DNA of 64,000 bases from a bacterium (GTDB lineage: Bacteria; Bacteroidota; Ignavibacteria; UBA10030): the NCBI GenBank assembly GCA_043803945.1, contig JAZDJN010000012.1:32001-96000 (forward strand). The letters run 5' to 3'. Of this stretch, positions 3,973 to 20,266 are shown in pieces; within the stretch, counting starts at the first letter, position 1; each line of letters starts with the position of its first letter. The position numbers and the translations under genes were made by a program. Below the pieces are notes generated by a model that was not told where the DNA came from, searched no databases, and worked only from the letters and a program-made list of their open reading frames with translations.

Positions 3973-4695
3973 TCATCCCGCTTTCTTCATTCTCGGCATT
4001 TCATCCCAGGTTTTACCTTCAAGCAATCTGCCCGCTTTTTTCTTGTTCGTACCTCCCCATTGCTTGAAGAAGAATGGAACACGATTATTAAAACATTGGT
4101 CGCGGATATCTAGCACCCAGGCTTCATCCATTGGCCGCGCTCCAGGACCTGATTCTCCACCTACGATCACCCAATCGATCTTCTTGAGATTCAGTTTGCG
4201 AAGTGGTCCAAGCAGCGGTTCAAGTGAGAGGAACTTTACAAGAGCACCTGTCGCCCTCAAATCATCAATGCGGTGTATGTAATCCTGATTCTCGACACTG
4301 ACACCCATCCAGATGTTTGGTGTCCACTTCAGCAGCGGGCTGAGTTCTCGAAGCCGTTCTGAGCGTTTTGTCAAAACTTGAAAACGATGCCAGTGAGTCT
4401 GTCCCATCACGTCAAATACTTTTTGGATGAATGCAAGCGGAACATCTTTATGGAATAAGTCACTCATCGAATTTACAAAGATCGTTTGCGGCTTCTTCCA
4501 CTGGAGCGGAAGATCCACCGCATGGTCGTGCAACGTTAGTTTGAATCCATTAGTATAGTTCGCCTGTCCCATTCGCTGTAAACGGTATGCCATACGTTCT
4601 GCATAGCAATGCTTGCAGCCCGGACTGATTTTATTACAGCCAGTAACCGGATTCCATGTAGATTCAGTCCATTCGATCTGTGATTTTTGCGCCAT
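3973..4695 (-). CDS. DUF5131 family (phage Gp37/Gp68-like) three-Cys-motif protein
   Basis: [63 protein letters not shown]. Confidence 0.95.
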
Positions 4696-4696
4696 G

Positions 4697-5572
4697 TTAT
4701 TCTAATATTTCTTGTGCAATTTTAATTGCGGTTTTTGCTCCTTTTACGTTCGCTGCTGCGAAACAGAGCAAATAAAGAGGAATATTTTTCCTGTTTAGAA
4801 GTAGAAGGGGATTAGAAGCGACTCCAGGAAATATACTTGAAAGTCGATTCACAAAATACTCAGCAATCGAATCAAAATTGCAGTTCTTTATTGTCAAATT
4901 TTCCTCACCAAAAAGATTCTCTTCTCTCGTTTTCTTATAGAATGCTCGGTACCACCCCGATGAACCGAAGACAACATTCAACCGCTTGCGAACTGCTGGA
5001 TTTATTTGCGCATCTCGTCGAAGCAACCGATTAACTGCCACACCCAGAGGGAAGAGAATCCAGAGATCGATGGCTTTAGTTTCTGCTATCGCTTCTATTG
5101 TATTCCACGCGACTTGCATACCGTATGGATCAAGAAAGAGCACTGCCCTGTTCTTTTTCCAATCATAATTCCGGCATCTGTCTTGAAGCCATTCGTTTGC
5201 GTCTTCATTGACAATTGAGACATCTTTGGAAAGTTCGGGATATGAATTGCGTAATGCCTCAAGTTCGACAATCTTGTTTGCATTGCGTTCAATGAAAATA
5301 TACTTGGAAAACCGCGGCTTCACTTCCAATGCAATTCTGGCGGAGCCATCAACGAATGTCCTCGTTTCAGGTTCCAGTAGTTCCGGTATGGCTAATTGCA
5401 ATTCATTTTCTTCTGGAGAAATTGTTCGATAACCCGTTCCCGCAAACGCATCGATAAATGCAAACCTAAACGGCTGCTTATTCATGATGGTTGCATAGGC
5501 AACAAGATACTTCTTCAGCCTCAACAACTTATCATTTGTCCAATCGCCGCCAAAGCTATGATGAGATACCAA
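4697..5572 (-). CDS. tcmP: Three-Cys-motif partner protein (SAM-dependent methyltransferase fold)
   Basis: [20 protein letters not shown] and LFLDPYG motifs. Lies 1 bp upstream of DUF5131. Confidence 0.85.
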
Positions 5573-5682
5573 GGTGCTTTCTCCCGTATGATTCTACACC
5601 TTCTCCGTCCCCTGATTGAGCAGGTACTCCTGAAACCGATCAAGTTCTATCTTGATCTTGGTCATGGTCAGGAAATTGATAA

Positions 5683-6108
5683 TTACATCGAATGAATCAA
5701 CCGCGTGAATCCTTCCTGCTCGAAGTGATGATCGCTTGACAATACTTCTGTTATCGCATTCTCATTCATCACTTGCATAGAAACACAATCAATGAAACTA
5801 GACTCTTTATCCAAACGAGATTTGTAGAATGAGACACTTCTGACAAATAAATCTCGCGTCTGTGGGAATACTCTCACATTAGGATTCTGGAGAATCTTAT
5901 TTACCGCTTCAGCAGCTTTTAGTCTCCATCCTTCTCCGAACCTCGAAAATAGATTAAGAACTTCTCCAAGGACGAATTCTGTAGTTATATACAACACTGG
6001 ACCATGCTTTTTAAGTTCTTCGTCGGCTCGCCTTGCTGCAAGATGGTGCTGATCTTGAGTATCAAGTATCGCAACCCAAAAACAAGTGTCTGCAAAAACC
6101 TGCTTCAT
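5683..6108 (-). CDS. PIN-domain (VapC-like) ribonuclease toxin
   Basis: VFADT, TTEFVLGE, SFIDCVS and SSDHHF supply the PIN acidic residues. Confidence 0.9.
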   Translation of the reverse strand: MKQVFADTCFWVAILDTQDQHHLAARRADEELKKHGPVLYITTEFVLGEVLNLFSRFGEGWRLKAAEAVNKILQNPNVRVFPQTRDLFVRSVSFYKSRLDKESSFIDCVSMQVMNENAITEVLSSDHHFEQEGFTRLIHSM

Positions 6109-6113
6109 GAATG

Positions 6114-7010
6114 CTAACGGTTGTAGAGGTACTTATCGTGACTCGAAGAGAAATCTTTGGGTAATTTCTTTATTTCTTCCTCAGGGATATCTGCCACAAG
6201 AGACAGAAGCTCATCAACAATAGACGGCGCTTCTATACTGAGTTGATTTTCATCGCTTGTTTCCTCCAGTGAATCAACTCGCACAATCTTTTTCAATGTA
6301 CCATCTGGATTGAATTCGCCCCACCCTCTCACGCGAAGTTTCTTAGATCGATGTTCTTTAAGAGCAGTTGTCACCGTCTCTTCAGCCTCTACCGGAAACG
6401 CTACAGGGAAGTTTATACCCTCTCCTTTATAGAGTTGAAAACTATTATGGACTACATCCGCTGCTCCAACCATACCCACGATATCAACTATGTCTTCAAA
6501 GCTTTTTTCTGCAAACTTTAAGATACGAGCCCGAACCTCGGGAGTGTATTCAACAGCTTTCGATTTTGAAGGGTGAATATGGAGCTTTTCATTCTCTCGC
6601 AGTGTCGAGCCGAGCTTACCAAAAAGTGGGATAATGTTCTTCGGTAAATTTTCCGGTAGCGGCGAATCTTGTTGGAGGCATTCTATGGTTCTCCCCGTCA
6701 ACTCAACAGCTTCCACGACCGGTTCCTCTTCAAATACTTCTAATTGTACACCATCTTCAAAATAGGCTTCTAATGGAAGTACTGCGCTTCCATCACCGAT
6801 ATGCGTAAAACGAAGGATTGTTCTCTGCTCGAAGTTGCGAGGTATTCTTTCTCGCTCTGGATGTTTTCTCTTATACAATTCAACAGCAGTCTTGGTAACG
6901 AGGCTTTGATATTCGATTAGCTCTGATAGCACATCAAGTGTGAGGGCGTGACCTTCGAATCTCTGACCTTCCAGCCTTAGCTCAACTATTTCTATCCATT
7001 TGCCAGCCAT
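6114..7010 (-). CDS. 298-aa protein ending in an antitoxin-like tail, putative PIN antitoxin
   Basis: Lies 5 bp upstream of the PIN gene. C-terminus LPKDFSSSHDKYLY resembles the P.D.S..HD.YLY tail of small PIN antitoxins. Confidence 0.6.
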   Translation of the reverse strand: MAGKWIEIVELRLEGQRFEGHALTLDVLSELIEYQSLVTKTAVELYKRKHPERERIPRNFEQRTILRFTHIGDGSAVLPLEAYFEDGVQLEVFEEEPVVEAVELTGRTIECLQQDSPLPENLPKNIIPLFGKLGSTLRENEKLHIHPSKSKAVEYTPEVRARILKFAEKSFEDIVDIVGMVGAADVVHNSFQLYKGEGINFPVAFPVEAEETVTTALKEHRSKKLRVRGWGEFNPDGTLKKIVRVDSLEETSDENQLSIEAPSIVDELLSLVADIPEEEIKKLPKDFSSSHDKYLYNR

Positions 7011-7083
7011 CGAAATAAACCCTGAAGTATCATTTAGGAAGGATATTCATGTTCAAATGAATCAGTGCAACTTGACGCTGTTA

Positions 7084-7112
7084 ATATTAGGTAATCGAGA
7101 GTGTAAAAGCAA
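7084..7112 (-). promoter_or_regulatory. Predicted sigma70 promoter of the antitoxin-PIN-tcmP-DUF5131 run
   Basis: TTGCTT-17 nt-TAATAT on the minus strand. Confidence 0.45.
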
Positions 7113-7320
7113 CCGCTAACCCTGGACCGGATTGATTCATAATAAGAAGGAGAATGGGAGGCAGAATCGGCCCGACTTAGAATAAAAACATCTTATATTT
7201 ACAGCCATTTTAACGTCTTTCTTCTTTCATCTTACTGATTCAGGTCGGGAGGAGACCTCCCTCCCAGCATTGATAATTAGAAAGTCTTCCATTTCCCGTT
7301 TCCGCCTCCTCTCTTAATGT

Positions 7321-7460
7321 CGTCTGCTCTCTACGATCTGTAGTCTGACGTCTGCAGTCTGTCTTCTGCCATCTGCAATCTGCCATTACCAATCCCCCCA
7401 TCACTCCTTCTCCCACTCTCATACTCTTATACACTCTTACCCTCTTACGCTCATACCCTC
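7321..7460. repeat. Heptamer (NNTCTGN x9) then octamer (TCNTACNC x6) degenerate tandem repeats
   Basis: cgtctgc tctctac gatctgt agtctga cgtctgc agtctgt cttctgc catctgc aatctgc; tcccactc tcatactc ttatacac tcttaccc tcttacgc tcataccc. Confidence 0.8.
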
Positions 7461-8088
7461 AAATCTTTTTCCACTCTTGCCTAAACACAAACACTCCGCT
7501 CTGCCATATCTCTTCCGGCGATGTGTTTGATGGATGTGTTGGAGTTGTGAGAATTTCCTTGCCAATGTTTTGATAGCACAGACGTACGAATGTTGCACAT
7601 TGAATGGCATGCTTCATATCGAAAATATTTTTCTTCGATAAGGCCTTTGTGAGTATCGCCCAGAGCGTGCCGAAGAGTTCACCGACCGGATACCGGTAGT
7701 GGTTCTCATCATACGCCAACTCGAGAGCTTTCCTTAACATTACCTCCTGCTCCTGCTGTGAAAGAGGTAATCCAAGCACACCGGCATAATCGAGATCGTC
7801 TCGGCACCACTTCACGATGCGGCTCTCCATCAAACCGTTCTTCACCTCCCAGTCCTTGACGCTCACGTGAAGGTCGCTCTCGAAGATATAGATGCCGCCG
7901 TCACCGCGACCGTCATCGCGGCACGGTCCCATTATAAAGACATGGTTAAACTTCGACGGTTTCTTATCCGGTGTTATACCGCTCTGCGCTTCACGGATAA
8001 GCTTATAGACCGGGTCTGAGGATCCAATAAGACAGATACGTCCCGGCGCATAATGCTGCCGGAAGAAGTTGAGGACTTGTGTGTTCAT
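7459..8088 (-). CDS. Permuted papain-like NlpC/P60 enzyme (YiiX/YaeF-like)
   Basis: His precedes Cys: FNHVFI...IFES...Y...IQCATFVRLCY...TSPEEI. Confidence 0.7.
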   Translation of the reverse strand: MNTQVLNFFRQHYAPGRICLIGSSDPVYKLIREAQSGITPDKKPSKFNHVFIMGPCRDDGRGDGGIYIFESDLHVSVKDWEVKNGLMESRIVKWCRDDLDYAGVLGLPLSQQEQEVMLRKALELAYDENHYRYPVGELFGTLWAILTKALSKKNIFDMKHAIQCATFVRLCYQNIGKEILTTPTHPSNTSPEEIWQSGVFVFRQEWKKI

Positions 8089-8127
8089 AGAGTTGCTCCT
8101 TCTGTTATAGAAATCAATCAGTCTCGA

Positions 8128-8678
8128 TGCACCCTTCGACTTCGTCCCGACTCATCAAGATGAATCGGGACTGCGCTCAGGGTGACAGGATTAAGTTTTC
8201 AAAGATAATAGTCAGTCTGAGCGCAGTGAGTGCTTTCTACGAACGAAGTCGATGACCGCTGTGAGGAAATAATGCATTTTGCATCCTTCGACTTCTCTCG
8301 TCCCGACAGGTCGAGCCGAGCTGCCTGCCCGCCAATTTGTGAGCAAGAATGGCAGGCGAGCGCTCAGGGTGACAGGATTAAGTTTTCAAAGATAATAGTC
8401 AGTCTGAGCGCAGTGAGTGCTTTTTACGAACGAAGTCGAAGACTGCGGATAGGAAATAATTCATTTTGCATCCTTCGACTCTATCCTGATTCATCGAAAT
8501 GAACCGGAATTGCGCTCAGGATGACTGGAGTTTTTAAAGTAAGAACCATAGTCAGTCTGAGCGCAGTGAGTGCTTTCTACGAACGAAGTCGAAGACTGTG
8601 GATAGGAAATAATTCATTTTGCATCCTTCGACTCCATCCCGATTCATCGAAATGAACCGGGATTGCGCTCAGGATGAC
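8128..8678. repeat. BIME-like array of alternating inverted REP-type units (4 forward, 3 reverse)
   Basis: A units ccttcgact...cgctcagg(g/a)tgac at about 8128, 8281, 8468 and 8621. B units gtcagtctgagcgcag...gaagtcga(a/t)gac at 8211, 8398 and 8551. Spacers are conserved. Confidence 0.9.
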
Positions 8679-8986
8679 TCTCTCTTTTTTCGTCTTTCAA
8701 CCATTTCCTTTGATTGGGCAAGTTCATGGATCAGATCAAAGTCTCCTTTTATCAGTGCTTCCTTCTTTTTCCGCGACCAGCCTTTGATTTGCCTCTCCGC
8801 GCATATTGCCTGGTAGATATCCGGAAATTCGTCCGACCAAACCAGCTTGACAGGTCGACGCCTCGAAGTGTAGCCTTCATAGATTCCTAATTCATGCGCA
8901 CTTATTCGCGTCTCCGGCTGAGTCGTACATCCGGTGTAATATGAGCCATCAGAGCATTCGAGTATGTACACCCAGGCTTTCTTCAC
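8669..8986 (-). CDS. Small GIY-YIG nuclease (UPF0213-like)
   Basis: WVYILECSDGSYYTGCT...R...H..G...YT..RRPV.L...AI.AERQIKGWSRKKKEALI. Confidence 0.92.
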   Translation of the reverse strand: MKKAWVYILECSDGSYYTGCTTQPETRISAHELGIYEGYTSRRRPVKLVWSDEFPDIYQAICAERQIKGWSRKKKEALIKGDFDLIHELAQSKEMVERRKKRESS

Positions 8987-9089
8987 ATCTATTGTTCCTG
9001 ACCATCACCATCACAAGCGATGACTTTTTTGAAATCATTGTCTATGTTTCAACGGAGGTTATTATGATATTCATTTTTTGCTTCAACGT

Positions 9090-9129
9090 GTGAAATCAGT
9101 GTAATCAGTGAAATCAGCGTAATCAGCGG
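9090..9129. repeat. Nonamer tandem repeat overlapping a stop codon
   Basis: gtgaaatca gtgtaatca gtgaaatca gcgtaatca gcgg. Confidence 0.75.
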
Positions 9130-10685
9130 TCATAGTTTTCCATAAACGCCTTCCGTATATGCGCCACCGCCGTATTCACACGCCACTTGAATTGATTCTC
9201 CCAGCACAGCCGCGGATTGCGATTCTTCTCCTTGTAGAGCACATTGCTGGCTTTGATCTCCTTTTTATCAACTGCAATTTCGTTGTGGTGAGGCAATGTC
9301 CATCGCTTCGGAAAGTCCTCCTTCTCCTCCATGCCTTCCGGGATATTGATCGCCGCTTCGATCGCTCCATCCGGAACACCTCGATTGATAATCTTCCAGA
9401 TCGTATCGGAATCTCCCTTCTGCGCATACCGCCCGGAGATCACTTCACCTTCCCACATTGCGGGGATATCAGTCTTCGGTACCGTGTTCTTCGCATTCAC
9501 CGAAAAGGAGGGAGATGTAAGATCGAATGTTGCGTCTTTTATATACACCGGCAGGTTCGCAAAACACCCGCTCCTGTTGTTTGGATCGTACAGCATCGCT
9601 CGTTCATCCTTGCCTGCCCCTGGATTTTCGATACGCGCAAAGTGGCAGTATGATGTATGTGCATAAAAATCGGCAATAGCATGGGCAGCGTATGCAAATG
9701 CCTCGATGTTATTGTTATCCTTTTTAAACACGTCCAATCTCTCCTGGATTTGCTGCCACCCCTCATTGATATATCCATTATCAAAGTGATCGAAGGGATG
9801 ATACGAACGCACGTCGATCTTATCGAAAATCGCAACAGCATGGACGAAATATTTCTTCAATTTTTCCTTGATCACGTCGGGCGCAATATCTTTAAGTGCC
9901 CGCTCTAAAAGGATGATCTCGTGCCACTCTCCGGCAAATTTTGGATTAATGCGACGCCATTGCTTTTTCAGAGTAAACGAAGAAGTCGAGGTGTTATCGT
10001 CGTGAAGCACCGACCAGACATGCCGATCGTTGAAGACATAAAATGGAACGTACTCAACAATCCGTTTCCGGGGAATTCGCCGTTGCCCGACTTGCTTTCC
10101 ACGCGCTTTCGGAATCACCGGTTTCAGTAACGGCTCTATCAATCGCCATTTGCCAATTTCGGTTTTATACATTACCCACATATGATCGTACTCCTCAGGC
10201 TTCGCCTTGCCAACGGTGTCCCGTACTTTTCCAAGAACAAGCCGGATATTATATCCACTTATCCCGCCCGCAAGCATGAGCGATGCAATAACGAATGAAA
10301 TATCTTCGCAGTCGCCAGTTTTCAGTGCGAGAGTTTCGTCCGGAAATTGCCATGCATCGCGTCCCCGAGCACTCTTATACCTTATAGTCTCTGAGATATA
10401 TGCCCAAATAATATTAGCCCGATAATCGAAGCTCCCCGATCTACGCTCGAGAAACTGATTCCAGTCGCCCCCATGTTTCTGAACATAGGCTTTGATGTTT
10501 TCGAACAGCTCCCGATGAAGCACGGTATTGTTTTCATGAACGAGAAATTCCCGCACGTCAATATCATACTCCTTGTCCGAGCCAACGGCAGGCCTTGAGG
10601 ATGGCACAATAGCATCGTGCAATATGACATCACCATCCCAGTTCCATTTGGTGATCCCTTTGATGTTTGAATACTTGAGGCACAT
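9123..10685 (-). CDS. Transglutaminase-like cysteine protease domain fused to a HET-C/Zn-phospholipase C-like domain
   Basis: N-half: WQFPDETL..KTGDCED, DHMWV, W..IEP. C-half: GEWHE, DHFDN, AHAIADFYAHTSY. Confidence 0.7.
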   Translation of the reverse strand: MCLKYSNIKGITKWNWDGDVILHDAIVPSSRPAVGSDKEYDIDVREFLVHENNTVLHRELFENIKAYVQKHGGDWNQFLERRSGSFDYRANIIWAYISETIRYKSARGRDAWQFPDETLALKTGDCEDISFVIASLMLAGGISGYNIRLVLGKVRDTVGKAKPEEYDHMWVMYKTEIGKWRLIEPLLKPVIPKARGKQVGQRRIPRKRIVEYVPFYVFNDRHVWSVLHDDNTSTSSFTLKKQWRRINPKFAGEWHEIILLERALKDIAPDVIKEKLKKYFVHAVAIFDKIDVRSYHPFDHFDNGYINEGWQQIQERLDVFKKDNNNIEAFAYAAHAIADFYAHTSYCHFARIENPGAGKDERAMLYDPNNRSGCFANLPVYIKDATFDLTSPSFSVNAKNTVPKTDIPAMWEGEVISGRYAQKGDSDTIWKIINRGVPDGAIEAAINIPEGMEEKEDFPKRWTLPHHNEIAVDKKEIKASNVLYKEKNRNPRLCWENQFKWRVNTAVAHIRKAFMENYDR

Positions 10686-10729
10686 AGATTATCCTTTCAA
10701 GGCTGTAACTCCTTAGTTGATAAAAGATT

Positions 10730-10860
10730 GAACACTGATGACGCAGAAGAATACAAGATTACCACAAAAACATTGTTGTATTGATGGAAGAAGTATATTC
10801 AGAATTATTCATTAAGCTTCATCTGTGATTATCAGTGATTTTCTTGTGTTATCTGTGTTC
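10730..10860. repeat. Inverted pair of degenerate 9-10 nt repeats
   Basis: gaacactgatgacgcagaagaatacaagatt ... atctgtgattatcagtgattttcttgtgttatctgtgttc. Confidence 0.55.
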
Positions 10861-10906
10861 TATTCTTGATGTTCCGTATGTGGAAAATTGTATGTTGAGC
10901 AGAAAC

Positions 10907-12112
10907 TCAAGACCCTGAAAATATTTTCAACAACTTTGCTATGCTCTGGTTGACCTCTTTCGAAGCTGTCTGATTTTGCTGCTGCAACCAGGTCTTGATC
11001 CGCTGCTTTATTGCCGTATTTGAGTTGTAGGCAAATCCCTCAACAACCTGAAGGAGCAGTTTTTTTGAGAGATCGTTCTTTGCAGGTTGATAGGATCGAA
11101 ACACATACGGCAGTACCCGTGCATCCTGAATCCTCCGCAGAAGAATTGTCATGGTCCGGTTCTCCGTTTCAACGCCGCTGGTAATATAGCCCACTGCTTT
11201 CTCATAAAATTTATCTGTCAAGATCACAGCATATGTTCCCGATGAGCTAAGCTGACCAACAGTCGAAAAATTCGCAAGCACTTGTGCATGGTTGATGGCA
11301 TCGATCCGGCGGTTCTGAAGAACGTCCTGTTTCAACTCTTCAGCAACCATCACCATATATTCATCACCAGCCCGGTCTAATTCTTTCTTCATGGACATCT
11401 GATTAATCGGATTTTTTGACTCCTTATATGCCTCATACACCCTTCGAGCAGAATCGAGAGAGAGTTTTGGTTTTGCCTGCGTTGTCGACTTTGTTTGCGC
11501 CCAGGCTGACGGTATCAGCCATGACGAAGCATAGCCCGGTTGTTCCGTCATCGCCGAGTCTTTCTCAGGCGGCACAACGAGGCTCAAACTGAGAAAATCG
11601 TTATCAACTTCCAGATGCGGTTTTAATGCAGGCGCATTGGCGATGAACATCGATGGATAAATATCTCTTTCGCACAACGTGGTGTAGATTCCTTTTTGTT
11701 GTGAGTACCTCACAAAGGCGAATGGGATGGGTGTATTGACCTCTGATCGTTTGAGCTTGATAAGCCACTCATACACGAATCGTTGCGAGTAGTGGTGTGT
11801 TGCCCGTTTGTGAACATAGACATTCTCACCAATGAGCTCGGTGTGCATCAGAGAATCCGGAAGCCCTCCACCATTGGGCGCTTTGATACAGCCGGTAATT
11901 TCAATTTCATCCGACACAACTGTCGGATTCCCTTGCGGTCCGACTGTCCAATACAATGTCCACACGATACCGAAAGAGACCAATCCAACCATAATAAAAT
12001 ACACGATGATTTGTACCCACCGGGGCATCTTTCTAAAGTTCGCGACAACGACCCTGTCAAGTATAGTCTGTAATAAACCACCGACTCCCGTTGGTTGTTT
12101 TTCCTTTCCCAT
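10907..12112 (-). CDS. Single-TM hypothetical protein, beta-rich domain plus HEAT-like helical C-terminus
   Basis: 401-aa ORF with RBS aggagga, hydrophobic segment IIVYFIMVGLVSFGIVWTLYW, and helical repeats such as DARVLPYV. Confidence 0.7.
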   Translation of the reverse strand: MGKEKQPTGVGGLLQTILDRVVVANFRKMPRWVQIIVYFIMVGLVSFGIVWTLYWTVGPQGNPTVVSDEIEITGCIKAPNGGGLPDSLMHTELIGENVYVHKRATHHYSQRFVYEWLIKLKRSEVNTPIPFAFVRYSQQKGIYTTLCERDIYPSMFIANAPALKPHLEVDNDFLSLSLVVPPEKDSAMTEQPGYASSWLIPSAWAQTKSTTQAKPKLSLDSARRVYEAYKESKNPINQMSMKKELDRAGDEYMVMVAEELKQDVLQNRRIDAINHAQVLANFSTVGQLSSSGTYAVILTDKFYEKAVGYITSGVETENRTMTILLRRIQDARVLPYVFRSYQPAKNDLSKKLLLQVVEGFAYNSNTAIKQRIKTWLQQQNQTASKEVNQSIAKLLKIFSGS

Positions 12113-12226
12113 AGTTGTTCCTCCTTATTGCGTTGATCCACTTATATGAAATTCAAACTACATCGTGATGTATCTATGAATGGTTTACTCCTCCAACAAT
12201 GGAATGAAGTATCCCCACCTTCTCTC

Positions 12227-13315
12227 TCATAGTTGGCTGATCATTTCAGGCAAACTCCAATGGACGGAAAACGATGTAGAGAGCGTCGATTGCTCGATGC
12301 CGCGCTTCTCAAATCCCAGACTAAATTCCACCCATGAGCTGCTGATGACATTCATCTCACCCCCCAGACTCACCAGTTGATATGATGATGAATTACTCAT
12401 CGACCTGATCTGCACCTCTCCGAACATTTTTAGCCGGTTCGATCCGGCGTAGAATCGGGCCGTCATGCCGAAGCTGCTCGAATCCATCCTTCCCGAAGCA
12501 TTGCGCTCGAGTGTACTAGAGAGGCCAAAGAGGAATTGCCCATACGAACCGATTGGCCAGGAAGCCGATAGCCATCCTGCATACTTGCCAACCCGCACAC
12601 CGCGAATAAGCGAGTCGGGTGAATGGTATTTCGCCGCAGTTCCCCATTCGATGACCGAAGCGTTCCAGAGACTATCCTTCCGCTCTGTCCGTAAGCGATC
12701 TACCAGATCTTCATACTTCTTCATCTGCTCAGATGAGTCCTTTTGTATCCGCCCGGATGAACCTGAGAAACCGGTATTGGTGGCACGAACGTCCTTAACG
12801 ATCTTCAGTGCTATGCCGGAGAGTTGCTCGAGATACTTCTGATCGCACCGCGGGTCGGCATCATCGAAGAGCGTCATCCGGAAACCGATCGATGCCTCGG
12901 TACCGCCGAGGTTATCATCCAACCGCCTGCTTGCCGCTGAAAACCGTAAGCGATAGAGAAAGGGAGATTCTCGATATTGCGAGAGCGTCAGCGACGATCC
13001 ATAGAGAATCATTGCCGGAGCAACCTCGACAGCAAATGTTTTCGGCAGGACTCCGCCCGATTGTGCAAATCCGGCAGCGAGTAACGCAACCTCCTGCATC
13101 GTTCCCGGCCTCAGAATATTCGAAGGATTATCGTCGAGAATCTTATAAGCGGGGGCATCGGGAACAGCAAGATTCATACGTGCTTCGGCAGTGCTCTTTT
13201 TCAGCCACTCACTTCCCGGATTTTGGGCGAGAACCGTGTACACACCACAGATTAATTCCGTCAGGATGAGTAAACCGATGACACAACCGCTCCTCTGCTG
13301 CTGTGTTGTAACCAT
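12227..13315 (-). CDS. Exported hypothetical protein, probable outer-membrane beta-barrel
   Basis: RBS aaggag before the ATG at 13315, signal peptide ...TVLA|QN, and amphipathic beta-strands ending STSFSVHWSL. Confidence 0.6.
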   Translation of the reverse strand: MVTTQQQRSGCVIGLLILTELICGVYTVLAQNPGSEWLKKSTAEARMNLAVPDAPAYKILDDNPSNILRPGTMQEVALLAAGFAQSGGVLPKTFAVEVAPAMILYGSSLTLSQYRESPFLYRLRFSAASRRLDDNLGGTEASIGFRMTLFDDADPRCDQKYLEQLSGIALKIVKDVRATNTGFSGSSGRIQKDSSEQMKKYEDLVDRLRTERKDSLWNASVIEWGTAAKYHSPDSLIRGVRVGKYAGWLSASWPIGSYGQFLFGLSSTLERNASGRMDSSSFGMTARFYAGSNRLKMFGEVQIRSMSNSSSYQLVSLGGEMNVISSSWVEFSLGFEKRGIEQSTLSTSFSVHWSLPEMISQL

Positions 13316-13326
13316 AGCGTTCTCCT

Positions 13327-13704
13327 TTAACAAACAAGTTCAACAACTAATCGTATTTGAACCGACTTTGTATCGATGGTTCCTTCATCGTATTCCCTTC
13401 CTCGCTCTATTCCATCCTGAGAGATTACCATATCCACACGGTACCGTTCCCCCGGCTGCGGATTTGGTGCAAGAATACTTGCGAGACAATCGAGGAATTT
13501 TCCTTTGAGAGAATCCACCGGCTGAGGCAAAAAATATTTATCAGGAATCTGATCGGTGTTCACGCCTTCACCGATAAAAGTTTTGGTCTTTTGATCTCCA
13601 TTCCAGAGTTGAAGGGAATATGCTCCCACCTGAGCATAACTAAAAACGATTTCAACGGTCACAGGACCGGCGTTCGCGTTAAGTGTAATTTTATTGAGTG
13701 GCAT
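13327..13704 (-). CDS. Small beta-sandwich-like hypothetical protein
   Basis: 125-aa ORF co-oriented in the operon with alternating beta-strand patterns and no signal peptide. Confidence 0.7.
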   Translation of the reverse strand: MPLNKITLNANAGPVTVEIVFSYAQVGAYSLQLWNGDQKTKTFIGEGVNTDQIPDKYFLPQPVDSLKGKFLDCLASILAPNPQPGERYRVDMVISQDGIERGREYDEGTIDTKSVQIRLVVELVC

Positions 13705-13742
13705 TGCTTTTACCCTTTTTCTTTTAGATGTCTGTAAGAGAA

Positions 13743-14606
13743 TTATACTGCTTTCTGCCCCTGTGTTGCATCATTCGGCTGAGCTGGTGCAGACTGAGAG
13801 GGCTGAGTCGGTGTTTTAGGTGATGGCGATGACGATCCCACCATCACGGGACTGGGTGGAGACGATGGTTGTCCACCTCCTAGAATAGCCGTAATAACTT
13901 TATCGATTGCCTGGATAAAGAATCGTTCACTGAATCCGCCCAGAAATGCAACGAGCAAAAGCGGCGTCTTGTTAAGAATGTTTGTGTTTCCTTGGAGTGT
14001 AATGAATCCTGCCTGCACCACAAACACGAGCACGATCCCCATAATAGCGCCTATAGCGGGCTTCAGGAAGTACCAAATGGCAAACGATCCATCGAATGTC
14101 AGGTCGGTGGCGTGCTTGACAATCCCCCACCAGACAATGGTCGTTCCACCGAATAATCCGAGCCACAGATACTGGAACGAATCTTCTGGTACGAGCTTGA
14201 GAGAATGAACTCTGAAGGGCATCCACGCGACGAACATCTCAATCAAATAAAGGAGGATGATCCAAAATAAAGGAGCTACTGCGAGACGGAGACGCAACAA
14301 TTTAAGAGATTCACTGGTAATGGCTCTGTTCACCAGGACGCTCATCTCGGTGGTGTACTGCTGGGCGAGAAACCAATTCTTATCCACAGCGGCAATATAG
14401 GCTTGCTGTCTGAGAAGCATTAAACGCTTCCAAAAATCTTCATTTGAAGAAAATGACTGTGCACGTTTGGTGATCGAAGCGATCGTCTCTTCGAACTGTT
14501 CTTCGCGGAGCTTGCCGCTTACTTGTCGAATAAATTGTTCAACGCTGACATAGTCGGGCGGGACATCGGATCCCACAAAAAAGTTTTTCACTTGCTTCAT
14601 TTGCAT
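13743..14606 (-). CDS. Four-TM membrane protein with WY..KP..GA..G and AFLGGFSER motifs
   Basis: Helical N-domain, four hydrophobic segments and a P/S/Q-rich tail. Confidence 0.75.
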   Translation of the reverse strand: MQMKQVKNFFVGSDVPPDYVSVEQFIRQVSGKLREEQFEETIASITKRAQSFSSNEDFWKRLMLLRQQAYIAAVDKNWFLAQQYTTEMSVLVNRAITSESLKLLRLRLAVAPLFWIILLYLIEMFVAWMPFRVHSLKLVPEDSFQYLWLGLFGGTTIVWWGIVKHATDLTFDGSFAIWYFLKPAIGAIMGIVLVFVVQAGFITLQGNTNILNKTPLLLVAFLGGFSERFFIQAIDKVITAILGGGQPSSPPSPVMVGSSSPSPKTPTQPSQSAPAQPNDATQGQKAV

Positions 14607-14707
14607 CGTAATATCCTTTCCTTATACAAGACCCTTGTTGGTTTTCATGAAAGTGTATCGATAACGAACTATTGCATGGCATGATCCTTTTTTTCATTTA
14701 ACCAATT

Positions 14708-14761
14708 GGGAGCATCTCCAGATTGTCAACGACAGGCGTTGGGACGATTGAAGATGCTCCC
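14708..14761. other. Intergenic hairpin
   Basis: gggagcatct...agatgctccc 10-bp perfect arms downstream of the C1 peptidase. Confidence 0.5.
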
Positions 14762-14798
14762 GTGAGTATGAAATGGGAAGAATGAGTTCTGGTCCTTG

Positions 14799-15713
14799 TT
14801 AGAATCCGAATTGCCCTGTAGCAACCCACTCATTCTTGAGCAGCGACCACCAATCGGTTGCCAATCCTTTCAAGACATAGTCATAGGGCAACCAACCATA
14901 CCCACTTTGCCCCCACGCTGTGCTCCATGAATTCCTTATAAGCAGTGCACCTGTGGTCTCAAGTCCACCTGGATTGGTGTTTTTAATCTTCATGGAATCG
15001 TCGTATCCTACAGCGACGATCGCGTGACCACCTGTAACCCGATCGGCTGGCGCAGGGAATGGAATCTTTCCGGTTGTGCCTGCCTGAGCAATCGAGTTGT
15101 AGACAGTGAAGCCGAAGATCGAAGGAAGCTTGGCTGCCAAATTCGTCTTAATTCTTTCGAGCAAGAGGGTTTGAGTTGTCCCAATCGGATCCAGGCGATA
15201 GTATGTGATGGCCTGATAATTCTGGGCAAAGGCATAGAGAAATGCCGATGGCTCCTTGTCATAATTTGCCACAACGTAGGGCCAATATTTTTCCGGCGGA
15301 ACGCCAAACAACACTAATGCACCCATGGTAGTCCGAAGAAATGCTCCGGTGTCTCCGGTCCAGTTGAGCAGATTTCTCGTAACTTTGTATAAGAAGAGGC
15401 GTGAGGCATCGATATGCGTCCCAAACGCACGCCGCTCGAAATATTCAACCATACCAACGCCCGCATGGGCTGTGCATGATCCAAGCCCATCCTGATCTTC
15501 TATCGCTGTACACCAGGGCCGCAAATCGGCCGATGGTGGCAGTGCAGCCGATGGCTTATCAATTCCAATTTTTCCGAGCATCTGTTTGATAGAATCCGTT
15601 TGACCTACCGATTTCAATTTGAGCGAAACTTCATGTTGTTCCATGGAATAATCCCGGAGGTCAGGATAGTCTGGTAACCATCCCATACGATATTGTTCTT
15701 GTACGTCTGACAT
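14799..15713 (-). CDS. Papain family (C1A, xylellain-like) cysteine peptidase
   Basis: GWLPD.PD.RD, EDQDGLGSCTAHA, GGHAIVAVGYDD and IRNSW motifs. No signal peptide. Confidence 0.95.
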   Translation of the reverse strand: MSDVQEQYRMGWLPDYPDLRDYSMEQHEVSLKLKSVGQTDSIKQMLGKIGIDKPSAALPPSADLRPWCTAIEDQDGLGSCTAHAGVGMVEYFERRAFGTHIDASRLFLYKVTRNLLNWTGDTGAFLRTTMGALVLFGVPPEKYWPYVVANYDKEPSAFLYAFAQNYQAITYYRLDPIGTTQTLLLERIKTNLAAKLPSIFGFTVYNSIAQAGTTGKIPFPAPADRVTGGHAIVAVGYDDSMKIKNTNPGGLETTGALLIRNSWSTAWGQSGYGWLPYDYVLKGLATDWWSLLKNEWVATGQFGF

Positions 15714-15917
15714 TGTTGTTCCTCCCTTCGAGGAAGTGATACAAGTGTTAAGATGGAAATCGAATGAGGTCTTTGTTCAAACCTCATGCCGGTAGAAGTA
15801 GCTATCTCATAGTTCTCATCACCTCCTGTTCGATGACAATGCACTGTCGAGTTCATTGTTCCGCATTGCATTTCCTAACCTTGACTGCTCTTTTGAGAAG
15901 CAGACAGGGATCATGAA

Positions 15918-16892
15918 TCACTTCGTGAATTCCAATTGAAGAACAATCGGGAAATGATCCGAATACCCATTCCTGTCGTAGGATATCTTTTGTGCCGGCC
16001 GGCCGAACCGGCGAGGTGTACCGTTTCGTTTCTGCATGGCTTTCGTACGATAGATGGTTACACCTTCGGGGTGAAGCGTTAGAGGAGAATCCTTCTTGAG
16101 AAATTCTTTCGTCACCATACATTGATCGAGCATGTTCCACTCGGATCCATAGTAGAACGTCCCAGAAGGTACCGTGGACATCAACGGCCACATACAATTC
16201 CAGAAGAGTGGATTCTTTGCACGCACAACCTGCTTTGGATCTCTCTTTGCGAGAAGGTATTCTTGAATCGACCGATTGAACGGTTCATCATTAAAATCTC
16301 CCATCAGCAGTACGGGGAATGGTAGTTGGCTGCCTGTGGTGAGATGTTGATGAGAGAGCAGATAGCTGACAGTCTCAGCGGTGAGCATACGGAATGGTTC
16401 TGTTTCATACTGACCGCCGGACCGCGAGGGCCAGTGATTCCCCGCAACAATGAATGAAGTGCCGGTTATTCGATGTGTTATTGTTGTCCAGAAAATATCA
16501 CGCGTTGCCGACCGCTTAATGATAGAGTGAAATCCCGTGTTCGAGCACGAGAGGATTTTCTTATCGTAGATGAAAGAGATTTCGATACCCCGGAGATCTT
16601 CCGTATCATGCGTCAAAACAGCGTACGATCTATCGGGCAATGTGAGCCGATCAACGAGAAGTTGCACGACCTCTTCGTTTTCAACTTCGCATATTCCAAG
16701 AAAATCAGGCCCCTGATTTTCAAACATTGATGAGATGACAGATGCAAGCTGGTCGAGTTTGCGGTCGCGAACCTGAACGGTCCAGCCCTTTAGTTCATTC
16801 TGCAACCTCCGTGCAAGATCAGGATGCCTCGATGCATCTTTATGATCAAACAGGTTTTCTACATTCCACCAGGCAAGTCGTATAAGACCCAT
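15918..16892 (-). CDS. Endonuclease/exonuclease/phosphatase (EEP) family nuclease
   Basis: WNVENLFD, CEVEN, NHWPSR, MGDFNDEP, LDQ and GYSDHFP motifs. No signal peptide. Confidence 0.92.
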   Translation of the reverse strand: MGLIRLAWWNVENLFDHKDASRHPDLARRLQNELKGWTVQVRDRKLDQLASVISSMFENQGPDFLGICEVENEEVVQLLVDRLTLPDRSYAVLTHDTEDLRGIEISFIYDKKILSCSNTGFHSIIKRSATRDIFWTTITHRITGTSFIVAGNHWPSRSGGQYETEPFRMLTAETVSYLLSHQHLTTGSQLPFPVLLMGDFNDEPFNRSIQEYLLAKRDPKQVVRAKNPLFWNCMWPLMSTVPSGTFYYGSEWNMLDQCMVTKEFLKKDSPLTLHPEGVTIYRTKAMQKRNGTPRRFGRPAQKISYDRNGYSDHFPIVLQLEFTK

Positions 16893-17118
16893 AGAATCGC
16901 CCTCCAGAAATGATCGGAAAGACGCTGAGGAGGAGGGGGCAATAACTCGTTCCTCTACGTGATGTCACTTCAAATCAACCGAAGACGCGCAGTAGACGGT
17001 CATACCTTTCAGGCACTAGAATATGAGAGATGCAAGGTACGGCTGAAGGATTGTTGGCGAGTTCGATACAGCGGTAAGGCTATGACGCATATATGCTAAA
17101 ATTCGCCACAAACCTCGC

Positions 17119-17151
17119 GCTAATATTAGCTAATTTTAAAAGTGTTGTCAA
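17119..17151 (-). promoter_or_regulatory. Sigma70 promoter with overlapping palindromic operator
   Basis: TTGACA(17151-17146)-17 nt-TAATAT(17128-17123). Perfect palindrome GCTAATATTAGC at 17119-17130. Confidence 0.65.
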
Positions 17152-17246
17152 GAACTTTTTTTCACTTTTGAGGATATTACAGGAGTAACCAGTATCTTTG
17201 AGCCAACAACCACTTCTCACTACGATATTCATCGAGGAAGACAGCC

Positions 17247-17969
17247 ATGTGTGGACGGTACGCCCTGACTAAAACACAGCGGGATATCGAATCAGAAGAA
17301 CTCTTTAGCCATATCCGGTCCGTTGACGTCGCATTTGATCAGCTTCCCCACTATAATATCTCGCCAATGCAGAAAGCCCCTGTCATTGCTATACGGGATG
17401 GTGAGCTTGTCCTCCAGAATATGCAGTGGTGGCTGATACCACACTGGTCGAAATCGAATAAACCCTCGTTCTCGACCTTCAATGCAAAATCCGAAACGCT
17501 CGACCAGAGTAAGCTCTTCGTCAGCTACTTCAAAGGAAGCCGGTGCCTTGTTCCTGCCGATGCGTTCTACGAGTGGCAAAAGGTAGCCGTTTCCTCATCT
17601 GAAAAACCGCAGAAGAAGAAAGAAGAGAAACAGCCCTGCTGCATCCGGATGAAGGACGAATCATTGTTTATGTTTGCCGGCTTGTTTTCAGTCTGGAAGG
17701 ATGCCGAAGGGCATGAACTTCCGACCTTTACGATTCTTACAACAGAACCGAACGACCTTATGCGCCCCATCCACAACCGGATGCCCGTTATCCTTCCCCC
17801 CGATCAGTACGAACCATGGTTAGACAGAACGAACAAGGATATCGAGACACTCAAAAAGAGTCTTGTCCCGTACGCACCTGACAAGATGAAGGCTTACCAC
17901 ATCTCTAACCTTGTGAATTCACCGAAGAATGATTCAGCGGAATGTTTGCATACCGTGGAAAAAGACTAG
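17247..17969 (+). CDS. SOS response-associated peptidase (SRAP/HMCES family)
   Basis: MCGRY N-terminus, YNISP, FNAKSET, RCLVPADAFYEW, IHNRMPVIL. Confidence 0.95.
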   Translation: MCGRYALTKTQRDIESEELFSHIRSVDVAFDQLPHYNISPMQKAPVIAIRDGELVLQNMQWWLIPHWSKSNKPSFSTFNAKSETLDQSKLFVSYFKGSRCLVPADAFYEWQKVAVSSSEKPQKKKEEKQPCCIRMKDESLFMFAGLFSVWKDAEGHELPTFTILTTEPNDLMRPIHNRMPVILPPDQYEPWLDRTNKDIETLKKSLVPYAPDKMKAYHISNLVNSPKNDSAECLHTVEKD

Positions 17970-17976
17970 GAACCTA

Positions 17977-18897
17977 CTAACGCGGTGGCCGGAAGAGTTC
18001 GGGTTCAACACGCTCACCGGGCATGCTGATGGCTTCCAGGAGAGGAAAGGCTTGTAACGTTGTTGCGGGAACAATCACTCGTTGATCATTTTGCAGCCGA
18101 TAGCGCAGTTGTAAACCGTTGACAACGGAATTTGCTTTTGGATCGTTGTGAAATACGGCGAAGCGCGTGTGAGCGACCTTAAGAATGGACTCAATCCTTT
18201 TGGTAATATCGCTAAGTTCTTGTGCGGAGTAGAAATAGTCATACCGCTCCCCCTCCCCTTTCCGATCCCATGTCCTGGCATTTCTTCCCATCATACGAAA
18301 GTACGCGAAGCCATCCCATGCCGATTTCCGAAAAGGCATGTGCTGCTTGATTTTCGGCAAATCGACATTGACGAGATGGAAGTTCTGTTCCTGGAAGAAA
18401 GAGGTCAGATCACTTTTATTCCATGAGTTGTTCCGGAGCTCGAGGAAGAGAGTGTGCTCACCGAATGTCCTGCTGAGTTTTTGAAGATACTCCTGCCGCT
18501 CGCTCGTTCGGGTAAATGAATACGGAAACTGAATGACAACGCCCCCGAGTTTGCTATCTGCCGCAAGCGGTTCGAGCATGCGCAGAACCGCAGTAACATC
18601 TCTGAGCGTTGCGTCGAATGTATGAGTGAATCCACGAAACAATTTTACAGTGAAGATGAATTGCTCGTTCGATGCAACATCGATCAACCACCGTTTTGAT
18701 TGCCGTGCAGAGAGCGAGGTATTATAGAAGGTTGCATTCACTTCCACCATGTCGAAGAATTGAGAATAAAATTCGAGCTTTCGAAAGTCCTTTGCCTGCC
18801 TGGCCGGATAGAATCGTCCGTCAAACGGCGGCAAATCCCACCCACCCATACCGACATAGACGACTGGTCGTTCAGAACTTTTACTGGAAGTAATCAC
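17977..18897 (-). CDS. DUF72 domain protein
   Basis: VG..GW, VEVNATFY, FTVK, QFP.SF, ELRN.SW, YFR..GRN and RYDY.YS motifs. Confidence 0.92.
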   Translation of the reverse strand: MITSSKSSERPVVYVGMGGWDLPPFDGRFYPARQAKDFRKLEFYSQFFDMVEVNATFYNTSLSARQSKRWLIDVASNEQFIFTVKLFRGFTHTFDATLRDVTAVLRMLEPLAADSKLGGVVIQFPYSFTRTSERQEYLQKLSRTFGEHTLFLELRNNSWNKSDLTSFFQEQNFHLVNVDLPKIKQHMPFRKSAWDGFAYFRMMGRNARTWDRKGEGERYDYFYSAQELSDITKRIESILKVAHTRFAVFHNDPKANSVVNGLQLRYRLQNDQRVIVPATTLQAFPLLEAISMPGERVEPELFRPPR

Positions 18898-18943
18898 GGG
18901 ATATGGTATGTTGTAAAAATATGGTAAACCCGGCCGTTCCCCT

Positions 18944-20266
18944 TCACTCTGAAGCCTGTTCTTTCGGAGATGCAGGTAATGGATGTCGATGGACTCGCAC
19001 TTTCTCTATAACCCGGTCTTTCACCTGCTCAACAGTAAACTCCGTGCTGTTGACGTGAATGGTCTCTCCTTTTTCAGGAATATGACCCAGGTTTTCAATG
19101 ACGAATCCGCCTATGGAGAGAATATCCTTCGGCGATAACTCTCTGTCGATTAACCGTTCCACATCGTTCGTCGTCAGGGTTGCATCGACAATATACTCGC
19201 TCTCACTGATCTTGATAATATCAGGCGACTCCCGATCGTATTCATCCTGTATCGTTCCTACCAATTCTTCCAGAACATTCTCGAGTGTCACCAGTCCCGC
19301 GGTTCCTCCATACTCATCGGCAAGGAACACCATATGCGTTTTCCGTTGCAACATGGTCTCCAACACCTTTTCGAGTTTTGCCGTTTCGGGTAAGAACACC
19401 GCATCGCGCTGCACCGATTCGAGCGAAAAGCCCGGCTGGTGATCCTTTTCATACTTGAAAATATCCTTGGTGTAGACGATACCAATAATATTGTCAATGG
19501 TTTCCTTATAGATCGGGTAGCGAGAAAATTTATTGGCACGCATGGTCGCCAGGTTATCCTGAATGAGTGCAGTGATAGAAAGCGCTACGATTGACGGACG
19601 AGGAATCATTGTATGCTTCGCCAGCTTTCGGCGAAAATCCATCGCGTTCAATACCAAATTCCGGTTTGTGACCGTCACCCGCTTATCCTGAGACAACAGG
19701 ATGCGTAATTCCTCTTCCGAGTGCATCAGCTCAGACTCACTGACTACTCTGAATCCTAAAATCTTTAAAATGGCATTCGCAACGGAATTCAACGACCAAA
19801 TAATCGGCCGAAAAGCCAGGTAGAAGAGGCGTAGAGGGTAAGCGACCCACAGGGTTGTATGCTGTGCTTTCTGGATTGCAAGCGACTTCGGAGCTAATTC
19901 CCCTAGTATGATGTGAAGGAATGTAATGATGGAGAATCCGATCCCAAAAGACACGCCATGGACAATCTCTTCCTTTACTACTCCCACCTCAATAAGAACA
20001 GGGCGGACGTGGCTTGCGACAAACGGTTCACCGAGCCAACCGAGAGCGAGGCTCGTAATTGTAATTCCCAGTTGAGTTGCTGAAAGGTAAGAATCTAAAT
20101 GGCTGATAATTTCTTTCGAAATTTTCGCGCGAAAATCACCCTTAGCAACGAGGGGATCAATTTGCGTTGCGCGTACTTTTACTATTGCAAACTCAGCCGC
20201 GACAAAAAAACCATTGAGGAATACAAAAAAGAAGACGATAAATATTTCTGTGATTATTGTCCACAT
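18944..20266 (-). CDS. Hemolysin/CNNM family protein (DUF21-CBS-CBS-CorC)
   Basis: NGFFVAAEFA, QLGIT..SL.LGW.GEP, GELAPKS and DEYGGTAGLVTLE motifs. Confidence 0.95.
   Translation of the reverse strand: MWTIITEIFIVFFFVFLNGFFVAAEFAIVKVRATQIDPLVAKGDFRAKISKEIISHLDSYLSATQLGITITSLALGWLGEPFVASHVRPVLIEVGVVKEEIVHGVSFGIGFSIITFLHIILGELAPKSLAIQKAQHTTLWVAYPLRLFYLAFRPIIWSLNSVANAILKILGFRVVSESELMHSEEELRILLSQDKRVTVTNRNLVLNAMDFRRKLAKHTMIPRPSIVALSITALIQDNLATMRANKFSRYPIYKETIDNIIGIVYTKDIFKYEKDHQPGFSLESVQRDAVFLPETAKLEKVLETMLQRKTHMVFLADEYGGTAGLVTLENVLEELVGTIQDEYDRESPDIIKISESEYIVDATLTTNDVERLIDRELSPKDILSIGGFVIENLGHIPEKGETIHVNSTEFTVEQVKDRVIEKVRVHRHPLPASPKEQASE

Follow-up and report, generated by a model that had tools for sequence, protein, structure and literature searches.

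The subject of this report is a co-oriented run of nine genes in a 64,000-nucleotide window of contig JAZDJN010000012.1 (positions 32,001 to 96,000; contig 12 of a 5.5-Mb assembly in 118 contigs, GCA_043803945.1) from an Ignavibacteria genome of the lineage UBA10030. Two adjacent genes of this run, sm125 and sp368, are its sole widely conserved unit; they are predicted to encode a leaderless immunoglobulin (Ig)-like beta-sandwich and an exported outer-membrane beta-barrel, and are referred to below as the pair. The run is a mosaic accessory island around this unit and not a conserved eight-gene system, as which an initial annotation of the window had tentatively presented it: its members split, and no conserved unit beyond the pair was found. 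Loci and genomes compared here carry L and G labels, respectively.

Architecture of the gene run

Between 7459 and 16892 open reading frame (ORF) calls and translations give nine ORFs, all on the minus strand (Table 1), in agreement with the co-orientation initially noted. Four of the nine proteins match Pfam families above the curated cut-offs (EEP, Peptidase_C1, Transglut_core and GIY-YIG), as had been predicted for them, and the other five match none. NCBIfam and PADLOC searches with the nine proteins contributed nothing further. The expectation that no defence system would be recognized held for eight of them, for which the PADLOC-DB 2.0 component models returned no family; the GIY-YIG protein gave a single weak row (DndC, E 0.0087). 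A scan of 7000-17400 against Rfam returned no family at the gathering score. A search for expression data listed no RNA run; two DNA runs from sediment metagenomes contained 0.06-0.07 of the sampled words.

Tight spacing is confined to three genes: TM4_287 ends 38 bp upstream of sm125, which is followed by sp368 after an overlap or, alternatively, a gap of 11 bp, the likely start of sp368 being the ATG at 13315. The run had also been placed behind one strong promoter. A promoter-like site does lie upstream of the EEP gene, but the region contains 14 such sites against 14.0 expected from shuffled sequences, and the claim is not supported.

Table 1. Genes and other features of the run, with positions counted from the first nucleotide of the window
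Feature	Position	Strand	Size or remark
EEP-family (Exo_endo_phos_3) nuclease or phosphatase, leaderless	15918-16892	-	324 aa
C1A papain-family peptidase, leaderless	14799-15713	-	304 aa
TM4_287, multi-pass inner-membrane protein (predicted)	13743-14606	-	287 aa
sm125, leaderless Ig-like beta-sandwich (predicted)	13327-13704	-	125 aa
sp368, Sec-type signal peptide and predicted outer-membrane beta-barrel	12227-13333	-	368 aa
tm401, N-terminally membrane-anchored ORFan	10907-12112	-	401 aa
TG520, transglutaminase-like core fused to VWA7_N/HET-C-like C-terminal domain	9123-10685	-	520 aa
Stand-alone GIY-YIG protein, between TG520 and p209	8669-8986	-	105 aa
p209, putative leaderless amidase with a circularly permuted papain fold (YaeF/YiiX, Peptidase_C92-like)	7459-8088	-	209 aa
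Dispersed repeat, intergenic, in the tm401/TG520 gap	10705-10900		further copies in own genome
Sigma-70-like promoter match, upstream of the EEP gene	17123-17151	-	TTGACA-17-TAATAT, 10/12 matches

The sm125-sp368 pair

The hydrophobic N-terminus of sp368 ends in A-Q in nearly all homologues, consistent with a Sec-type signal, and an N-terminal VPDAPAF motif is conserved, with invariant columns in the family alignment. The AlphaFold2 model (predicted local distance difference test, pLDDT, 86.8) shows a beta-barrel of 11 DSSP strands with N-terminal helices and a long helical hairpin inserted at residues 159-215. A Sec signal together with a closed antiparallel barrel places sp368 among predicted outer-membrane beta-barrels, and the earlier suggestion of such a barrel is thereby strengthened. 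The small beta protein of the same annotation likewise finds its counterpart in the model of sm125 (pLDDT 93.6), an all-beta Ig-like sandwich. Its best structural match is weak: the DUF4425 structures of Bacteroides (PDB 4qey, 3u6g, 2lrg) are similar in size and beta-sandwich topology (TM-score 0.53, E 1.4e-3, VIA-align Z 7.1), but the match does not rise above generic Ig-like folds and no sequence similarity was found. We know of no function for DUF4425, and the term was not found in a literature search.

No single family stood out when sp368 was compared by VIA-align with solved outer-membrane barrels: OmpG, the PgaA barrel, porins and a FadL homologue gave Z values of 10-12.4. Its predicted fold is that of barrels of the FadL/TodX/CymD and OmpG types (Z 12.4 for OmpG, 11.6 for a FadL homologue and 10.7 for FadL), and a conserved N-terminal segment ahead of the barrel is a further point in common. 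CymD (E 5.4e-4) and FadL (1.5e-3), which are channels for hydrophobic compounds, head the Foldseek rows. These similarities raise the somewhat unlikely alternative that the two proteins form an envelope module of their own with an unrelated role, such as a channel for small hydrophobic compounds in the outer membrane, equipped with a subunit that regulates or plugs it. Against such a function, the Foldseek TM-scores to FadL-type channels are just 0.2-0.24. Compared with the FadL and OmpG types together (TM-scores 0.2-0.37), sp368 has no sequence-family match, and neither its long helical hairpin nor a dedicated leaderless partner has a counterpart in those families.

An exhaustive profile search with sp368 against 1.84 billion representative clusters returned 3421 at E<=1e-3, of which 2528 pass the stricter limit of E<=1e-10. 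None of 54 members of the family, and none of 47 members of the sm125 family, has a convincing Pfam family, and there is no NCBIfam model for the barrel. Sequence searches of solved structures with the sp368 and sm125 profiles, and with the single sequence of TG520, returned no meaningful match, and a literature search found no description of the pair.

Loci were collected by searching a word index for sp368 (13 proteins, including that of the window), by pattern scans (42 metagenome and 26 genome loci, the genome scan being built on a 7-sequence alignment) and from a class-level genome sample, which added 12 sp368 loci; collapsing the anchors at 90% identity left 61 loci. Of the 58 non-redundant loci where this could be assessed (three more were not assessable), 52 have an sm125-family ORF as the immediate upstream neighbour of the barrel gene, in the same orientation. 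In a further set of class-sample loci, 11 of 22 (11 of 20 on another count) have an sm125 detectable with a hidden Markov model, and six more (L101, L103, L106, L108, L111, L121) have a divergent small leaderless ORF at its position. Within the class, the sp368 profile is present in 38 of 301 genomes; it is absent from the 17 other genomes sampled from the family to which the window belongs, yet found in all five genomes of one genus. Given these patchy counts, we consider the pair accessory here; the sp368 gene is single copy in its own genome.

Modelling supports binding of sm125 to sp368. The predicted complex scored 0.87, a mark reached by 116 of 157 solved complexes and by 2 of 215 mismatched pairs, and the best of three controls scored 0.00; runs share at least 75% of contacts, with a partner pLDDT of at least 87. 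In the model, the sp368 hairpin, together with helices between the first two strands, packs against both sheets of sm125, and the interface includes conserved residues on either side (Y29 and G47 of sm125, D154 and R156 of sp368). A signal peptide is absent from sm125 and from every homologue inspected, apparent N-terminal extensions being ORF-calling artefacts or Lys-rich tails. Since sm125 is leaderless and sp368 carries a signal peptide, the predicted partners start in different compartments. The DSSP assignment places turns of 2-3 residues after strands 5, 7 and 9, with longer connections alternating, and on the basis of this alternation of short and long turns the hairpin would face the periplasm.

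Neighbours of the pair and linkage of the other window genes

In many unrelated lineages, same-strand neighbours frequently lie 1-45 bp from the pair. Lipases occur near it in nine loci, as phosphoesterase-type phospholipase C (L023, L031), PI-PLC (L030), patatin (L032, L064), an LCAT-like protein (L072), a phospholipase D fragment (L037), DUF900 (G098) and a convergently oriented Tle1-like gene (L092). Nucleases or phosphoesterases are found in 8-10 loci (Endonuclease_NS with Metallophos in L091, SNase with Metallophos in L032, Lactamase_B+LTD in L064, Metallophos in L013, L035, L038 and L056, and a weak PhoD match in L012), and peptidases in eight, among them trypsin-like proteins (L031, L095, L080) and CHAT (L045); GMC oxidoreductases occur in L032 and L091. 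By a simple hydropathy check, most enzymes near the pair lack a signal peptide. That hydrolase and membrane-protein genes should stand so close to the pair in so many unrelated lineages, and that functional classes (lipase, nuclease, protease, endolysin-like) recur though the families differ, argues against an envelope module indifferent to its neighbours.

One cluster of neighbours, c3, consists of leaderless, endolysin-like proteins with a peptidoglycan-binding PG_binding_1 domain (L014, L024, L025, L032, L074), and L017 has a further PG_binding_1 ORF near the pair. Two c3 proteins were compared with PHROGs. That of L025 has endolysin matches in both halves, including phrog_9589 (9.9e-16) over residues 135-256, a region outside the peptidoglycan-binding part, and that of L014 has endolysin matches mainly over its peptidoglycan-binding end. 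In L024, L025, L028 and L074 the c3 gene starts 11 bp upstream of sm125, and a gene for a protein with three transmembrane (TM) spans, c9, follows the barrel gene after 22-29 bp. In L074 and L025 this block terminates a long operon whose Baseplate_J matches score 37.7 and 40.3 bits (cut-off 21.1), as would fit a cluster for a tail-like particle equipped with release genes of its own. Tailocin and contractile-injection clusters carry release genes after their baseplate genes, a position to which that of the block in these two loci may correspond. Both are from Gemmatimonadales, and across 12-11953 of L074 and 221-8805 of L025 we find, in this order, Baseplate_J genes, a 720-aa protein, a DUF6519 protein, the endolysin-like gene, the pair and the 3-TM protein.

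Multi-pass membrane proteins adjoin the pair in 18 loci, with family c9 in eight loci, c4 in six and TM4 in four. TM4_287 itself has 3-4 hydrophobic spans by hydropathy, in keeping with the four-span protein of the initial annotation, and has an N-terminal soluble part of about 100 aa and a Pro/Ser-rich tail. Its family comprises 35 proteins with a conserved GGFSERF motif in the alignment, and adjoins the pair in L013, G019 and G098. The closest relatives of sp368 (P0002) and of TM4 (P0163) seem to be encoded together on one contig of 6.9 kb.

The longest comparable arrangement was seen in G019 (L052, on the same contig as L068), an Ignavibacteriaceae metagenome-assembled genome from the window's order and another family. 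Within 6 kb it carries sm125, sp368, a 102-aa TM protein, a 220-aa TM+pYEATS protein, p209, TG520 and TM4, in that order, which differs from that of the window. This recurrence of five window genes, the pair among them, in another order speaks against the view that the pair merely sits in variable genome regions, so that the window's enzymes are piecemeal, unrelated neighbours. Elsewhere linkage is sparser. L013 reads two pYEATS genes, TM4, genes for 214 and 88 aa, and the pair; L012 has a p209-like gene, the pair and a TIR_2+TM protein; and G098 has a small ORF, an sp368-like gene, a TM4-like gene, a gene for 372 aa and a DUF900 hydrolase. Assignment of the 372-aa protein to SIR2_2 was dropped, since the PF13289 match lay elsewhere in the G098 genome. 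None of the window's other genes is present at most of the 83 pair loci examined, and among the loci examined none except the window has more than five members. Co-occurrence of the members is thus borne out in part, for the five in G019 and for TM4, p209 and C1-like genes at a few pair loci; EEP and tm401 are not linked to the pair elsewhere, and TG520 is linked to it in G019 but at none of six other fetched loci.

These observations bear directly on the proposal that the window encodes a fixed eight-gene, protease-gated and membrane-targeting pathway of papain-fold enzymes, a nuclease and envelope proteins, which as a fixed system is largely refuted and which we now regard as highly improbable. 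The shared orientation of all genes, the second gathering of five members in G019 and the C1-like peptidases near the pair in three other loci are in its favor, but the EEP gene is never linked, tm401 is an ORFan, TG520 stands apart in six of six other fetched loci and no second locus exceeds five members. Nor did any result support protease gating, and there is no evidence for a protease-substrate relation.

The individual enzymes follow the same pattern. The EEP protein is well assigned (PF19580, 187 bits against a cut-off of 27, E 5.6e-55; PF03372, 28.8 against 24.5), whereas the NCBIfam ExeM/NucH model gives just 29.9 bits against a cut-off of 300; homologues occur in 74 of 301 genomes, and none adjoins the pair or the C1 gene. 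The C1 peptidase matches PF00112 over residues 59-275 (43.4 bits against 20.7, E 5.4e-11), and its translation contains GSCTAHA, GGHAIVAVGYDD and IRNSW, which we take to be the catalytic Cys, His and Asn in their usual order. In L042 (BLASTP 2e-6) and in G313 the barrel gene is closely followed by a C1-like gene, and L117 has a large ORF with a C1-like region 2.6 kb upstream. In the G313 locus (L103, G313:C15, 4494-5268) the C1 homologue is split over two frames, through a frameshift in the gene or else a fault of assembly. G026 holds the closest C1 orthologue, whose surroundings are unrelated to those in the window. There (L053, G026:C13, 4585-11290) it is followed by a cytidine/MafB19-like deaminase and faces genes for a 1132-aa TPR-CHAT protein, a TPR protein and an ECF sigma factor; L053 may be a separate conflict locus.

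The core of TG520 (residues 88-185) matches PF01841 with 28 bits against a cut-off of 23 (E 2.8e-6), and the G019 orthologue with 36.5 bits. Its C-terminal half had been read as a HET-C/phospholipase C domain. Atlas features (0.94) over residues 255-520 agree with this, as do structural TM-scores of 0.55-0.58 to VWA7_N/HET-C-related clusters, which serve as leads only, but in Pfam VWA7_N reaches 12.2 bits (15.4 in G019) against a cut-off of 27.5, with no Het-C row. At six of six fetched loci with full-length homologues, neither the pair nor p209 or TM4 lies within about 8 kb. For p209, called a permuted NlpC/P60 enzyme, Pfam returned no family even at E<=1, while the Atlas structure matches to Peptidase_C92/YaeF-like clusters have lead-level TM-scores of 0.65-0.72. 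His49 is invariant, and Cys164 is present in five of six homologues and replaced by Ser in L012. In permuted NlpC/P60 enzymes the catalytic His precedes the Cys in sequence. A circularly permuted papain-fold amidase of the YaeF/YiiX, Peptidase_C92-like kind is a candidate identity for p209, on structural matching and these two residues. Its orthologues in G019, G026 and G314 are 61-69% identical, that of G026 lying beside SLT and RlpA-like genes. The absence of a signal peptide from the four window enzymes, as first stated, agrees with the simple hydropathy check.

Additions to the run are also apparent. The HEAT-like fold ascribed to the 401-aa protein was not recovered: tm401 has no Pfam hit, and its sole match among 5.8 billion clusters, at the sensitivity of the search tool, is itself; we read it as a lineage-specific addition. 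As the positional counterpart of the TM+pYEATS protein of G019 it was compared with a 4-sequence pYEATS alignment, and this identity was rejected (hhalign probability 0.08%). The GIY-YIG protein is securely assigned (PF01541, 62 bits against 22.6, E 6.6e-17) and belongs to a family with nine scattered members in its own genome, this one included, at 25-57% identity. A multi-copy DNA element was ruled out for the region, the surrounding DNA being single copy. The gene is missing between the G019 orthologues of TG520 and p209. The dispersed repeat in the tm401/TG520 gap has eight more copies on other contigs of its own genome, at 72-87% identity; both it and the GIY-YIG gene are insertions. This repeat also matches two relatives and resembles a small non-coding mobile element. 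Around p209 and the GIY-YIG gene, the gap stretches 7318-7408, 8127-8190, 8388-8446, 8550-8680 and 9093-9132 match short repeats in relatives, with 20 matches in G002 alone.

The flanks of the run were also annotated. Downstream (1206-7010, minus strand), what had been taken for a toxin-antitoxin island is better described as a group of candidate defence genes, comprising a 588-aa SWIM/DUF6880 protein that matches PDC-S62, PDC-M41A beside a DUF5131 protein (PDC-M41B), and a PIN protein, after which comes a 298-aa match to PDC-M32A. Upstream (17247-23366) are a plus-strand SRAP gene (YedK-like), DUF72, a CNNM/CorC transporter and an AAA_11 helicase of 960 aa that weakly matches mad8.

A possible lysis or release module and competing explanations

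We tentatively favor the explanation that the pair is the core of an envelope-breaching lysis or release module with variable enzyme cargo, a reading that is quite possible without being probable. In different genomes the pair is surrounded by one multi-pass inner-membrane protein and by changing, mostly leaderless degradative enzymes, which in this run are the EEP enzyme, the C1 peptidase and the papain-fold p209 and TG520. According to this explanation the membrane protein (TM4_287 in the window) would open the inner membrane, so that leaderless wall- or lipid-active enzymes and sm125 could enter the periplasm. Only then would sm125 meet the barrel, and its binding would open or destabilize the outer membrane. 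The cell would lyse or release its enzyme cargo, in suicide defence or in attack on competitors. We favor this reading because it alone explains, taken together, a leaderless protein predicted to bind an exported barrel, the leaderless peptidoglycan-binding, endolysin-like neighbours and the position of the block after baseplate genes. The envelope-acting conflict or export function proposed at the outset stays viable, but its centre is a two-gene core that had not been singled out.

The pair loci resemble holin-endolysin-spanin cassettes and type 10 secretion in that leaderless wall-active enzymes, multi-pass membrane proteins and an outer-membrane component are adjacent, and in their leaderless, cargo-like hydrolases; the order endolysin-like gene, pair and 3-TM protein in L024, L025, L028 and L074 is a further point of comparison. 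Unlike the spanin lipoprotein pair, the predicted products here are a monomeric beta-barrel and a cytosolic Ig-like partner. Furthermore, the membrane proteins match no holin family, and viral contigs yielded no relatives.

This reading should be interpreted with caution, since several observations weigh against it. None of the window proteins matches a holin, endolysin or spanin model. Searches of PHROGs gave no hits for TM4, sm125, sp368, TG520 or p209, and no holin or spanin family for TM4, c9, c4, sm125 or sp368, and among viral contigs there are no relatives of sp368 or TM4_287. With 287 aa, TM4 is unlike typical small holins, and hhalign shows no detectable relationship among the TM4, c4 and c9 families (probability 0.2-0.5%). 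The predicted periplasmic orientation of the hairpin is read from turn lengths in the DSSP string and not from coordinates. Outside the three tightly spaced genes, the intergenic gaps of the window are mostly 114-221 bp, one of them holding the dispersed repeat. The Pfam annotation of neighbourhoods leaves out the 20 loci L104-L123. Many pair loci lie among ordinary genes (RND efflux, MsrPQ-like, xanthine dehydrogenase, valyl-tRNA synthetase and cation efflux genes) with no hydrolase near, and from these loci it follows that the pair can stand alone. Finally, immune-type signalling proteins (TIR_2, SLATT_2, WD40 with MAP3K_TRAF_bd/TPR-S, OLD, CHAT-TPR) occur among the neighbours.

Some of these points would be expected of an unrelated envelope module. 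The ordinary neighbours at many loci fit it, as do the wide gaps of the window with their repeat and GIY-YIG insertion; neighbours are almost never kept beyond close relatives, and homologues of TG520, C1 and EEP are mostly found away from the pair. The compactness and recurrence of the hydrolase neighbours and the G019 arrangement, discussed above, pull the other way.

The immune-type neighbours are better accounted for by a defence sensor than by lysis. According to this explanation, which we consider somewhat unlikely, the pair belongs to an anti-phage abortive-infection system: barrel and partner would sense phage or envelope damage, the membrane protein would relay the signal and the variable enzymes would act as cytoplasmic suicide effectors, which would have to be leaderless. 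Immune domains stand in tight same-strand runs with the pair, such as TIR_2 with a TM segment (37 bp, L012), SLATT_2 (76 bp, L030) and, in L032, patatin, WD40 and MAP3K_TRAF_bd/TPR-S with gaps of 5, 23 and 25 bp. OLD-TOPRIM and CHAT-TPR occur in L045, and pYEATS in L013, L057, L059 and L068 (the G019 contig). A 2026 bioRxiv preprint describes pYEATS as a ligand-binding domain of conflict systems, and nothing relevant on outer-membrane or beta-barrel proteins was found in it. The patchy distribution of the pair (38 of 301 class genomes, none of 17 in its own family) is also what a defence system would show, and defence genes lie nearby both in the window (PDC-S62, PDC-M41A/B, PDC-M32A) and in L095 (HsdM, HsdS, SIR2_2), although location in a defence island is no proof of a defence role. 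In a broader sense, a conserved core with highly variable effector-type neighbours is typical of multi-gene conflict systems, whose domains (TIR_2, SLATT_2, patatin, trypsin, CHAT-TPR, TPR-S, pYEATS) share same-strand runs with the pair. But no NTPase or nucleotide-signal generator is conserved with it, the core is an outer-membrane barrel and an Ig-like protein that match no PADLOC or Pfam conflict model, and the weak DndC row on the GIY-YIG protein is the sole PADLOC match of the nine. A leaderless peptidoglycan-binding protein and the leaderless partner of an exported barrel fit purely cytoplasmic effectors poorly, and immune-type neighbours are missing from many pair loci.

Several of these domains come together in L032 (35-16833), a single-strand run of about 17 kb, its gaps ranging from a few bases to about 116, that holds TIR_2, Metallophos, two GMC oxidoreductases, an endolysin-like gene, SNase, the pair, patatin, WD40 and MAP3K_TRAF_bd/TPR-S.

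Returning to lysis or release, the topology of the predicted partners could be taken one step further, to a device split between compartments, which we put forward as doubtful. The intact inner membrane would keep sm125, a cytosolic Ig-like key, from its periplasm-facing lock; a membrane breach, by a channel protein or a phage, would deliver the key, and the outer membrane would be opened or destroyed, an arrangement that may have been reused as a release or suicide arm. If true, spanins and disruptins would be joined by a third way of breaching the outer membrane in lysis, one that both FCB-group bacteria and Gemmatimonadota would employ for interchangeable leaderless lipases, nucleases and proteases and for tail-like particles.

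In conclusion, the barrel family is large (2528 clusters) and has no Pfam or NCBIfam model, its window copy has no PADLOC match, and the heterodimer, predicted with high confidence, of an exported barrel and a leaderless partner poses a clear topological question. To our knowledge, no outer-membrane-based defence trigger has been described, and the pair would provide one if it acts as a defence sensor. If the lysis or release reading is true, it would explain how leaderless enzymes and tail-like particles are released by those bacteria of these phyla that have no known spanins, and lysis and type-10-like secretion would gain a class of component not described so far. Either way, the eight genes of the window should not be catalogued as one unit.

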